Assembly: GCA_964016885.1 (NCBI GenBank)
Contig: OZ024743.1
Location: 161,510,001 to 161,574,000 of the forward strand
Source of the DNA: Eledone cirrhosa
Lineage: Eukaryota
Direction: 5' to 3'
Length of the DNA: 64,000 nt
Notes under the pieces: generated by a model
Told to the model about the DNA's origin: nothing
The model's database searches: none
What the model saw: only the letters and a program-made list of their open reading frames with translations
Translations under genes and position numbers: made by a program
Shown here: positions 1,971 to 62,987 of the stretch, one piece after another
Layout of the letters: every line of letters starts with the position of its first letter
Position numbering within the stretch: the stretch's first letter is position 1

Positions 1971-3501
1971 AATGCACACACACACAATGCCACAACCATC
2001 TGATACGTACATAGAAAAATATTCTTCTTATAACAATCTGATGTCTCTAAAGTTAAGAAAATTTGATGAATTTTTCCATAGTAAGGACATTAAATACTTT
2101 TTGTTAAAAATATAGTTCCTGTTGTCAAAGGGATAAAGCTAAAACGCCCACCAGAGGCCACAAATAAATTGCTACACCCATTTCTGGTGTCCCCTACCAT
2201 ATGAGGGGCCCAAGGCAGTCCCCCCCCCCCATTAAAACTAGTACTGCATATATATATATATATATATATGAAAAATCAAGCTGTAAACTTGTCTTGTACT
2301 TCGCCTTTCTTTATTTCCTCTTCCGATCACTTCTATGCACTAACACACAACTCCTTGTCTTCCTCCTCTTTCAATCTTTTCTATATTTCATCTGTCTGTC
2401 ACCCACCTTATAGATTGTCTCTCTGTTGACTACTGGTCGCTGGTCTCTGTCCATTGAGATATTTTTGCCCATTGCTGTCTTTGACAGCATTTAGCTGTTT
2501 TTAATGGCTTTCCTAGCGATGTGTTTTCTCATTTTTGTAGGTATTCAAATACACTTTCGCTTCATCTCAATCAGAGACACAGAGACATTGTTTTTGTGTA
2601 TATATATATATATATATGTGTGTGTGGAGAAGGGATCATAAAATGATGATGATGTTGATTTAGGTTTGACAAATGCATGAATGAGTACTTAATACCTTAG
2701 TAGAGATTAGTTTTAATGTAACAGGCTACTGATTTGACCTTAATAAATCTATGTATGTATGTGTGAGTGTGTGTGAGTCTCTCTCCCCACTCTCTCTGTG
2801 ACATAAATTTATAAAAATTTGACTGTATGTTGTATGAATTTAAGCATGCATAGTTACATAAGCAAACACCTAACAGCAATCTATATTGTATATCTGATTA
2901 CGTATACTTTTGTCCATGTTATATTATAAAGCCTAATATTTGTACTTTGCTTGTGTGTGTATTACTAAACTGAGTCATACACATAGATCGGTATATATTA
3001 GATATATACACGTGTGTGGGTATACACACAGCTACAGTTTCAAGATTATTATTTAAAAAATGAAAAGCTGCTGAATGTTTTGGTACATGTATATCTGAAC
3101 TTTCTTTTGTATCCACATACACAAGCATCTACACACATACATATACAAGAGATACACCTACACACAGATTGACCTGTCTACACACACAAACACACACGCA
3201 GAGGATTGTATAAACTCCAACTAAAGGACAGTGACATCTTGTTAGACAATATCTTAGTATGTTGTAAAAGAAACATTGAAATGAATAAGAAATAAATAGC
3301 AAGGCGAATGAAAATTTATTGGTCTGCAGCCTGAAGCCAATTATATGCAGTCTTGAATAAGTGTTGTTGTTGATGATGATATTGTTGCTTTTGTTATTGT
3401 TAAACAAACAGATCCATCACATTAATATATCTCCTTTCCTTTTCTTTTTAACATCTTCAGCTACCATTTGTAAGTGAGCTACTTATCATTATCATTACTA
3501 C

Positions 3502-3532
<31 letters not shown>

Positions 3533-4609
3533 TTAGTGTGATGTGCAAACAATTGGCTCTTCATTCAGCTCTCAAGTTATTTTATTAGACATGAACTTAT
3601 CATTGTTGTTCTGTGCTTGGTCATGAAATATTTTCTCCTCATCCAAATATTAATTCCCATTCCTCTTTAAGTTACTGTAATTCTGAACACTAATCGACAA
3701 TATATGCACTTTTATCTACACCTTACCTCCATTTTATTTTTATTAAATATATGTATTTATTTCTTTGCAAATTGTCTTATAAGCACCAAAACTTACATTT
3801 GGTTGATTTTTTTTCTTCTTATATATTCTTAAAAATCATATTTATTATTATTATTATTATCATTATTATTTTGTGTTTGTGTGAGTGTGTGTGTGTGTGT
3901 GTGAGTGTTTACTCATAGAAATACTATGGATTCTTTTGCATTTGTACGACCAATGAGTTTGTCTTCTTTTTAATTATTAAAATATATATTCAGTTCTACA
4001 ATATTTTTCAATTTCCTATGACTGCTCTTTCTTAGGCCCTATCTTGTTTCATTCACTTGTGGCTTTTCCTTTTGTGCTACTGCACCACTACATGTAATTT
4101 CTTTTCCCTATTGCCTGTTGAAACCTTCAAATGGCTGTAACTTTTTCAACAGCCTGTCAATGGTCACATTTGAATTTTACTCAAATCTGAAGGTCAGACT
4201 TAATTTGAAACAATTAACTGACATTAATTATTATCATTATTATTGTTATTATTATTAATTTTCATTTTCATTTTTCTGCGCTATAAATTGGTGTTAATTC
4301 AAATAAACTATTTCAGTAATGTTTAATTCTACAGATTACAATCTCCAAATACTTCTATAAAGATCTTAATTACTTTTTTTTTTTGCTACTTCTTATAATG
4401 TGCGAATTTAAATATTAATTGATTTTTTTTCTAAATCTGTTTAGATTTCATTAATAGGATGTGAAATGCTTCACGTAACAAATTATCTCATTAATGTAAT
4501 TGCTTTTTTGAAATTTTGATCAGATCTCTTCTAAAGAAGGAAGGCATATTGTACTAAAAACAACTATGATTGACTATATCCTCAAACTAAAATTTTAGTA
4601 TTGGATCTC

Positions 4610-59214: not shown

Positions 59215-60544
59215 ATATGCAGGGAGGCAGAGAGTAGGAGGTTTGCCAATGTTCTGCGACGGGAAGATCAGAGGCGTGCGGTGTTCCACATTGCAAGGCA
59301 GTGTGTCAATGCAAATCAGGATGTTGTTGGAGATAAATGTGTCCGGGATGATGCCGGTGTACTTAGTGTCACGAATGATCAGAAAAAGGAGGCCTGGTAA
59401 TGTCATTATGAGAGACTGATGAATGTGGAGAACGAATGGGAGAGAGAGAAATTACCCTTGGTAGATCCGACAGAGGGACCAGCTATTGAGATTGACGAAT
59501 ATAGGGTCCAAGAGGCGATTAGGGAAATGAAAAATGGTAAGGCTGCCAGACCATCGGGAATAGTTGCAGAGATGCTGAAGGACGTAGGCACTAAACTGGT
59601 TGCACGCATCATCAATCAGGCTATATATGGTGGTGTCATACCCAAAGACTGGTGCAGCAGTATTCTCATAAATTGCTACAAAGGTAAAGGGGATGCTTTG
59701 GAGAGGAGCAATTATAGGGGTATAAAACTGATAGATCAGGTTATGAAAGTGGCAGAAAGGATTTTAGCACAACTAATTAGAGAAAGGGTCAAACTAGATG
59801 AGATGCAGTTTGGTTTTGTGCCTGGGAAGAGTACAACAGATGCCCTCTTCTTGGTGAGACAATTGCAAGAGAGGTTCTTAGAGAAGAATAAGCCACTATA
59901 CTTAGTCTTTGTTGACCTAGAGAAGGCCTTTGATAGGGTACCCCGATCTGTCATCTGGTGGTCCCTAAGGAAGCTAGGTGTTGAGGAATGGCTTGTGAGG
60001 ACAGTGCAAACTTTGTACAGAGGTACTCTCAGTAAAGTCAGGGTAGGAATGGAATTTAGTGAGGAATTCCAGATACAAATAGGAGTACATCAAGGTTCGG
60101 TCCTCAGCCTGCTCTTGTTCATTATAGTCCTCCAAGCCATAACAGAGGAGTTTAAGACTGGCTGTCCATGGGAACTTCTCTATGCTGATGATCTGGTTCT
60201 TATAGCAGAATCAGTAAAGGAGCTAGAGAATAAATTCTGGCTATGGAAACAGCAGTTGGAAGCAAGAGGACTGAGAGTGAATCTAGCTAAGACAAAAGTG
60301 TTGATGAGTAGAAAAGAGGACAAAACCCTGATTCCGTCAGGGAAATGGCCATGTTCGATATGCAGAAAAGGAACTGGCATAAATTCTATAAAATGCACAC
60401 AATACAGATCATGGGTACACAAAAGATGTAGCGGGATAGCAGGCAAACTAACAGGTAGGGAGAAATATGTATGCAGTAGATGTACAGGGAAATTAGACAG
60501 TAGAAGTCGCACTGATAGACACATTTTTCAAATGCAAGAGGGCG

Positions 60545-60545
<1 letters not shown>
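59215..60545 (+). mobile_element. RTE LINE internal fragment with an uninterrupted RT plus PHD-like ORF (59419 onward), cut by (TA)n
   Basis: NYRGIKLI, FVDLEKAFDRVP, GVHQGSVLS, LLYADDL, CSIC...WVHKRC...CSRC. Confidence 0.92.
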
Positions 60546-60586
<41 letters not shown>

Positions 60587-60590
<4 letters not shown>

Positions 60591-60824
60591 GTAGAACACT
60601 GCAAGGTAATATCCGTGGTGGTAGAGCACTCAGTCCATCAGACGAGTTAGGTAGAAGTGGTTACACAACAGTTAGTTCACCATACCGAGAACAATTGTTT
60701 CACCTTAGCGGATCCTCAGCTCGTAATGGGCATGGTTATCCCATGCGTAACCACTTCTACCTAACTCGTCCCATGGACTGAGTGCTCTACCACTACGGAT
60801 ATTACCTTCCAGTGTTCTACCACT
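60587..60824. repeat. 78-bp inverted repeat (74 of 78 match) enclosing a hammerhead motif
   Basis: Arms at 60587-60664 and 60747-60824. Confidence 0.9.
60680..60729 (-). ncRNA. Minimal type I hammerhead ribozyme candidate
   Basis: CGAG CUGAGGA uCCgcuaaGGu GAAAC aauu GUU CUCG: intact core, palindromic helix III, weak helix II. Confidence 0.6.
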
Positions 60825-60952
60825 TTATACATCTCCAGCACCGGTTAGCAGATTCTCTCCACTACGTAGAAGTTTGGCTTTTAACAGATTCTTCACAACG
60901 TGCGAGTTTGGCTTACTACCCTGAGAGCGCTCTCTATATCCTTGTGTCCTAC

Positions 60953-61049
<97 letters not shown>

Positions 61050-61073
61050 GATTAAAATTTAGCTTCGTTTATT

Positions 61074-61128
61074 ACTGCTATATATATTTCAGTGACAGCC
61101 ATCTTTGGCTGTGACCTCTTCAGGCAGT
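61074..61128 (-). ncRNA. Minimal type I hammerhead ribozyme candidate (Penelope pLTR type)
   Basis: ACUGC CUGAAGA GGUCACAGCC-aaagau-GGCUGUCACU GAAA U-auau-A UA GCAGU, followed by AATAAA and (TA)n. Confidence 0.72.
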
Positions 61129-61725
61129 TTGAATTAGTATGGTATAGACAAGTACATATGTTGTTTAGGTGTATAATATTGTCAATACTCTGATATGCCC
61201 AGTTCCTTGTTGGGTTGTTAATTCACTGAGGAACTGGAGTCATATGAATTCAAACAAACGAATTTCAGTGTCAAAGGTCCTCTTCTCCTCTCATTGGTCA
61301 GTTATTAGAACAATCCTCATTCTAAGTGTTGTTATTGTTGGAGTTAGCTTAAAAATTGATAAAATGGTAGAGCCTCACCCCAGAAAGAATTCTATAGACT
61401 TCTGACTGAGGAATGCTCTCAGAACTGACCAATGGGAAGTTTGACACTTTTTTTGTTATTTTGTTCCTTTAACACCTTGTCCCTTCTACCATTTTATTAT
61501 TTCGTACTAGTTTACTTTTCTGCACTGGGTGGTTGCTGGCCTTGTGCCTGGGGTAGAAACCTTTATTAATTATTTCGTGGTAGTTCCTTTAATATTTTGG
61601 CCCCCCTTTGTCGACCCGTCACCGTATGATATACGTACTTATACCTCTTAAAAGGGTCCTTTCCTATTCCGTCCCACCTAGTTTATTTATTTATTATTTT
61701 TTTATCTCTTTCTTTATTTATCTAT

Positions 61726-62744: not shown

Positions 62745-62807
62745 GTCTGCTGGTCTGTCTATCTATCTGTCTGTCTGTAAATCTATAGCTATCTGTGTAT
62801 ATTTAAT

Positions 62808-62987
62808 AATTGTTTCTACTTTCGGCACAAGGCCAGCAATTACCCAGTGCATTACTGGTACTTTATTTTATCGACCCCGTAAGGATGAAAGGCAAAGTCA
62901 ACCTCGGCGGGATTTGAACTCAGATCGTAAAGGATCGTAACTATGCTGGAAAGCATGGCGTCCGACCCTCTACCGATACTGCCAATG
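62808..62987 (-). mobile_element. tRNA-derived SINE, full length
   Basis: A and B boxes; flanked by repeated TGTATATTTAATAAT (probable TSD). Confidence 0.87.

Follow-up and report, generated by a model that had tools for sequence, protein, structure and literature searches.

The unit at 60587–60955 of the window (the 64,000-nucleotide stretch of Eledone cirrhosa DNA that was analysed) is, with little room for doubt, the left end of a dead Hydra-clade insertion, in which an inverted copy of the terminal repeat (pLTR) is followed by a direct pLTR copy and the 5' UTR, the rest having likely been lost by later deletion into a TA tract. Mapping within the same genome indicates that both arms of its foldback are an inverted and a direct copy of the pLTR of a Penelope-like retrotransposon (PLE) of about 2.6 kb. 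A preliminary description of this DNA had proposed a retroelement origin, and this holds, both arms and the right third mapping onto a natural full-length copy (L071). It had also proposed a retrozyme-like or new non-autonomous unit, which this is not: the sequence is that of a Penelope-like element's pLTR and 5' UTR, and the unit is the terminus of a Penelope family, a result that the same description had listed as counting against its proposal. The unit is an ordinary fragment: elements of this type normally include both a fold-back structure and a hammerhead motif.

The unit, its parent element and its neighbours

The outline of the unit (Table 1) agrees with what had been read from the letters alone. 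The arms (60587–60667 and 60744–60824) match at 76 of 81 positions, and the repeat finder returned arms of 89 nt at 92%, TA included. The minus strand is predicted to fold at −193.3 kcal/mol (z = −16), a stability equalled by none of 100 shuffled sequences. Both TA tracts and the small hairpin lie where they had been placed, and the right half of the hairpin is likely a short copy of the nearby pLTR, left by a template switch or as a repair patch; patches like it are present at other family junctions. The absence of a credible ORF is correct for the unit itself, but other copies run straight on into a reverse transcriptase (RT)-endonuclease ORF.

Table 1. Features of the unit and its flanks (window positions; a dot means no strand)
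Feature	Position	Strand	Evidence
(TA)21 tract, left end, target-type microsatellite	60546..60587	.	3291 family ends of type A adjoin TA
Inverted 5'-truncated pLTR copy, end A back to about −152	60588..60739	-	Maps to L071
Type I hammerhead motif of the pLTR	60680..60729	-	Core letters retained in 136–148 of 149 family hits
Small hairpin at the inversion junction	60730..60746	.	Junction once in genome, ≤2 mismatches
Direct pLTR copy, hammerhead part missing	60744..60823	+	End B after 60757, end A after 60823
64–66 nt 'tail' between family ends B and A	60758..60823	+	Genome-wide end counts and mapping
Element 5' UTR, broken 22 nt before the ORF start codon	60824..60957	+	L071 unit positions 5–134
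Right (TA)n tract, AT overlap with the 5' UTR; not a family end	60956..61049	.	

A search of the organism's own genome gave 84 matches among the 40 scored of 1382 candidates. In most of these the hammerhead has the same sense as the 5' UTR (the unit's right third), and the sequence continues into the ORF. L071 contains, in order, TA, an inverted pLTR (3174–3399), a direct pLTR (3398–3566), the 5' UTR, an ORF span (2177 bp, with a disrupted frame in that copy), the 3' pLTR and TA; its element unit is 2657 bp long, including a 55-bp duplication. Positions 60587–60739 map inverted to the last 153 nt of L071 (89.5%), and the direct pLTR and 5' UTR part maps to it at 92.5%, the right third ending ahead of the ATG at unit position 157. 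The stretch from UTR to ORF has 99 genome matches, with a pattern equal in length to those used for the family ends.

The fold junction of the unit is single-copy, and its right end also has one match genome-wide (≤1 mismatch). Neither youth nor selection follows from the high arm identity, which at 93.8% is ordinary for the family; the family median is 92.5% in the 13 of 90 insertions in which whole-insertion self-alignment resolved two arms. Pieces of the unit are at most 95–97% like other family copies.

The repeated GTGGTAGA(A/G)CAC motif, present in two copies (60588 and 60618), had been compared with a tRNA A box. This A-box-like motif, the inverted arms and the TA flanks would together suit a SINE of tRNA origin or a MITE-like DNA transposon bounded by terminal inverted repeats, but neither a tRNA nor a GTTCRA B box was found on either strand, and the GTGGTAGA motif is the antisense of the element's 3' end; the tail at 60758–60823 holds it as a repeated (C/T)TCTACCAC motif, which is GTGGTAGA(A/G) on the opposite strand. 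The arms do not lie at both ends of the unit, and the fold junctions differ from copy to copy. Mapping to the pLTR of an RT element refutes both of these origins, to which we give practically no credence.

The parent family appears to be a Hydra-clade PLE, apparently an unlisted one as judged against the literature rather than Repbase or Dfam; membership is assigned from motifs and by-eye comparison with references. The accessible text of PMC8557442 defines Hydra elements as short, with a C-terminal endonuclease, RWK, DKT, a CxCX5C linker, and CxxC plus CxH around a conserved E and N, and describes them as carrying canonical hammerheads and targeting (TA)n. The present element is <3 kb long, with a single ORF in which RT motifs are followed by a C-terminal YVG endonuclease motif, and two further Hydra traits, a pLTR hammerhead and (TA)n insertion, are present in the family. 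RLRWR and SDKTNN occur in the L071 ORF, and RWK/RWR plus DKT in homologues; ORF pieces contain the linker CSCRKPEAC as well as YVG, CGLCIDE and LNTRSEFFTRCPH, which fit CxCX5C, CxxC and CxH. Database homologues (the 120 listed of 662) are 38–49% identical, and 17 of those listed, when aligned, have the same motifs with small variations; no CCHH motif, CxC domain or IFD was evident by eye in this alignment of homologues. Atlas neighbours score 0.94–0.98, and several include members with RVT_1, HTH_animal and GIY-YIG. Compared by eye with the accessible supplement of PMC8557442, the first 250 residues of the ORF product are closely similar to Hydra-1_Obim; the hammerheads differ from those of Hydra-1_Obim, so the family would be a sister family. 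Pfam searches with the ORF pieces gave no RT or GIY-YIG hit, and a PDB sequence search with the ORF gave no match; RT-fold matches of the ORF model (pLDDT 65.7, pTM 0.37) were no better than E 1.3e-3. A Naiad/Chlamys affiliation was rejected: those PLEs have an N-terminal endonuclease, DKA and no canonical hammerhead (PMC8557442, accessible text), whereas here the endonuclease is C-terminal, the motif is DKT and a hammerhead is present.

Other mobile elements adjoin the unit in the window. A young RTE-like LINE (59219–60549; RVT_1 at E 3.9e-28, plus a PHD-like finger) is 99% identical to 39 other scored copies. It breaks off at its own TATA, and some 630 bp of its 3' part are missing from the window; its junction with TA is unique in the genome. 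At the break (60546–60549, compared with L156–L160), intact LINE copies continue with 12 letters identical to inverted end B of the Penelope-like family, which may reflect chance or target mimicry. To the right, at 61048–61497, lies the end of another family that targets TA and is much younger (2362 candidates; most of the 40 copies scored match at 99%). It has its own minus-strand hammerhead with its core from 61123, GAAA at 61090, an AUA cut triplet and a TA-palindromic helix III. An ORF piece beside one copy (L153) has RWK and DKT, and this is likely, by its motifs, another Hydra-type family. Finally, a short dispersed repeat occurs twice in opposite orientations, at 61521–61573 and 62799–62851; it follows TA tracts in other loci too and is probably the end of a common SINE-like element.

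The hammerhead motif

The minus-strand hammerhead had been located correctly, with CUGAGGA from 60719, GAAAC at 60701 and the predicted GUU cut between 60690 and 60689. It is a type I motif of the Penelope kind, in which the conserved core and three helices are present: helix I consists of 4 bp, a 2×2 loop and 4 bp; helix II is as weak as had been noted (2 bp); and helix III is palindromic, with a computed self-duplex energy of −6.4 kcal/mol. Two of the 149 family hits that underlie the core counts in Table 1 were counted twice, in overlapping loci. The N7 position varies among these hits (G in 118, A in 31), and from the core onward the common variants are limited to this free position and loop II. 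Since the downstream flank is equally well kept, core retention is weak evidence.

The predicted active fold of the monomer reaches −7.9 to −9.3 kcal/mol, compared with −11.7 kcal/mol for an alternative fold, and the computed pairing of helix I in the whole transcript is 0.10–0.16. The active hammerhead fold is thus, by these predictions, not favoured in the 60587–60955 copy. Rfam gave no match at the gathering score, and no hammerhead family was among the 28 rows returned at E up to 10; these rows score far below the gathering thresholds and reflect TA content or generic hairpins. No helix covariation was detected within the family, the copies being too alike, and the three double changes counted all came from one misaligned row of another family. 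The hammerhead is inherited from the pLTR, and in the element the ribozyme would cut tandem transcripts, probably as a dimer or with protein help; in the present copy it probably does nothing.

Insertion ends and the origin of the foldbacks

A preference for TA repeats, proposed from this one locus, is borne out across the genome, where about 3,300 A ends and 3,200 B ends adjoin TA tracts (3291 and 3173 matches; none with either reversed control), as counted with end patterns that miss phase-shifted TA junctions. End A is preceded by end B at a distance of 64–66 nt. Contigs of three runs have loose TA ends at 60652 and 60829, in agreement with ends B and A; the runs, of unrecorded kind, come from a single study, possibly the assembly's own source, and were not counted as independent.

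The A-end sample comprised 90 of the first 100 listed, all on contig C1, with eight neighbours in what appears to be a local repeat and the last two left out; the 90 include two pairs that resemble duplicated segments. At 60 of these loci an inverted arm starting from A meets a direct arm that runs to B; the others have a direct arm ending elsewhere at 8, one arm at 20 and other arrangements at 2. Among 40 B-end loci outside this sample, 21 pair with A (19 by scoring, and also L195 and L214 from the table) and none pairs with B, while the direct arm ends elsewhere at 3 and a single arm is present at 16. Exceptions to the A/B rule include two query-selected copies, L005 and L008, which have A at both ends. 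Junctions vary between copies, often with short templated patches. A continuous TA repeat across both flanks, which bears on pre-existing versus added TA, was found at 0 of 60 loci in the sequences compared. Because most of the sampled insertions are short inverted-plus-direct foldbacks that end in A on one side and in B on the other, and whose junctions vary, the rod is best regarded as a by-product of insertion.

An alternative, which we consider very improbable, is that the unit is a discrete non-autonomous retrozyme-like element transposing as a 370-nt rod via circular RNA. Its type I hammerhead, small size and strong self-pairing would suit such an element, retrozymes have been reported to derive from PLE pLTRs (bioRxiv 10.64898/2026.07.22.740005, accessible text), and 46 of the 60 A–B insertions are ≤300 bp long. 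For retrozymes, however, head-to-tail repeats of 150–450 bp with one hammerhead each are expected (PMC7229834, accessible text), whereas here there is a single inverted junction, from which one hammerhead cannot cut out a monomer, and a strict pattern found no same-strand hammerhead pair <1 kb apart in the sampled family loci. The unit's junction and its right end each account for the only match in the genome. One family junction, at about −160 counted from end A, does recur at 8 loci with different flanks, but A is on the left at four of them and B at the other four, and it must therefore have arisen independently at least twice. The retrozyme reading is thus largely refuted.

In G000:C1:143338022-143785347, nine A-type ends in the same orientation lie about 50–60 kb apart, which suggests a large tandem duplication. 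L003:1362-1848 and L004:1501-2620 are complete but internally deleted insertions with the A end on the left and the B end on the right; their direct arm passes from the ORF directly to about −160 in the pLTR. Each was seen once, and they are candidate short non-autonomous derivatives.

The foldbacks can be accommodated by the following scheme. The element's GIY-YIG endonuclease would cut both strands in (TA)n, its RT would initiate two cDNAs on the element RNA, at sites A and B respectively, and the two outward-facing, 5'-truncated cDNAs would be joined by a template switch or end-joining, so that only one end of the foldback would carry the 64–66 nt tail. The accessible text of PMC8557442 describes inverted 5'-truncated copies, and a tail of 30–40 bp, as typical of PLEs. 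A Poseidon PLE extends both strands in vitro, with two internal RT starts bounding the tail, and ribozyme cleavage is not needed for its insertion (PMC11167929).

In the window copy, A stands on the left while the right side runs through B and A, so the unit would be the left end of a longer insertion whose body is lost; we infer that the right part went by deletion. It is unlikely, though by no means negligible, that the copy is instead a complete primary insertion, its second cDNA begun at a minor third site in the 5' UTR and nothing deleted later. In favour of such a third RT start, L010 runs from about −158 to within 1–2 bases of the unit's right end, between two TA tracts, and L015 and L002 also end at TA tracts, 17–59 nt further on; the end patterns, moreover, would miss a phase-shifted TA junction there. 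Against it, these ends are scattered (unit positions 135, 150, 152 and 193), and a 23-mer end pattern gave 7 matches versus 4 in the control, with none of the six others a family UTR end; moreover, the LINE on the left, cut at its TATA and missing its 3' part within the window, points to deletions at a TA-rich site. The choice between a third start and a truncated left end alters only the history of this copy; its identity is unchanged.

The 5' stops of the arms are clustered. Measured against 13 natural references, a stop between −90 and −170 is seen in 53 of the 77 A arms extending to −90 and in 45 of the 55 B arms, and none of them stops between −170 and −200; an apparent pile-up at −136 is partly a reference artefact. 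The effect is weaker in the separate 40-locus B sample, with 19 stops between −90 and −170, 3 at −171 to −200 and 18 beyond. The recurring junction lies at about −160, where L010 and the internal jump in L003 also begin. At about −190 there is a GCGCATGCGC motif, which we take to resemble an NRF1 site. For Penelope, a start site inside the pLTR has been reported (PMC8557442, accessible text). The positions of the stops suggest that RT primes in the 5' pLTR and runs off where the RNA begins, a short distance upstream of the ribozyme; RT stalling at the ribozyme is the rival to such run-off. We put forward tentatively, as a possibility with the odds against it, that the family mass-produces fold-back hammerhead cassettes of about 200 bp, RT priming twice within the 5' pLTR of the mRNA, at A and at B, and running off the RNA start about 160 nt upstream of A. 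If so, the genomic ends, in their thousands, would locate the RNA start and the two RT start sites with single-base precision, and the formation of PLE inverted repeats and tails would be explained. Clustering of arm stops 90–170 nt from end A was not found in print, in a search with older subscription papers and repeat databases outside its scope.

Comparison with known systems

Inverted pLTRs, a tail between two ends, TA targeting and the hammerhead have all been published already. As a single unit, the present copy matters little, being one broken copy among thousands. The origin of inverted pLTRs and one-sided tails in PLEs is called unresolved in the accessible text of PMC8557442, and the present family, with its high copy number, two sharply defined ends, long tail and clustering of 5' stops, offers good natural material for studying it, and also serves Hydra-clade annotation; the in vitro work found concerns another clade.

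Non-LTR retrozymes (PMC7229834; bioRxiv 10.64898/2026.07.22.740005; both in their accessible parts) are likewise small, non-coding and PLE-related, with a type I hammerhead, but theirs are head-to-tail repeats that give circular RNAs, in contrast to the one inverted junction and one ribozyme of the unit. Closer are the minimal PLE hammerheads (Cervera and de la Pena 2014, PMC4209133, accessible text), which are type I motifs in pLTRs with a palindromic helix III suited to dimers, and which occur as many lone copies and as opposite-strand pairs 100–700 bp apart, derived from truncated PLEs; the present motif departs from them in its very short helix II (2 bp) and in its long helix I (about 8 bp, interrupted by an internal loop).

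PAc, the Poseidon PLE of Anolis (Frangieh et al. 2024, PMC11167929), resembles the present family in the two internal RT starts that bound its tail, in its AT-rich targets, in the cutting and extension of both strands, and in a pLTR hammerhead that is dispensable for insertion. It differs in clade and in that its starts lie inside the ORF, whereas here the two ends precede the 5' UTR by 66 and 0 nt; the PAc mechanism was demonstrated in vitro, whereas ours is derived from genomic ends.

The closest likeness is to the Hydra clade, of which Hydra-1_Obim is the nearest named member (Craig et al. 2021, PMC8557442, accessible text). The family shares with that clade a length <3 kb, one ORF, a C-terminal endonuclease, the RWx, DKT, CxCX5C and CxxC/CxH motifs, (TA)n insertion and a hammerhead about 100–130 nt from the 3' end. 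According to the same source, many Hydra hammerheads have, like the present one, an extra U on each side of helix II and a U at the cut site, and Penelope-13_HM has, like the unit, an inverted 5'-truncated copy.
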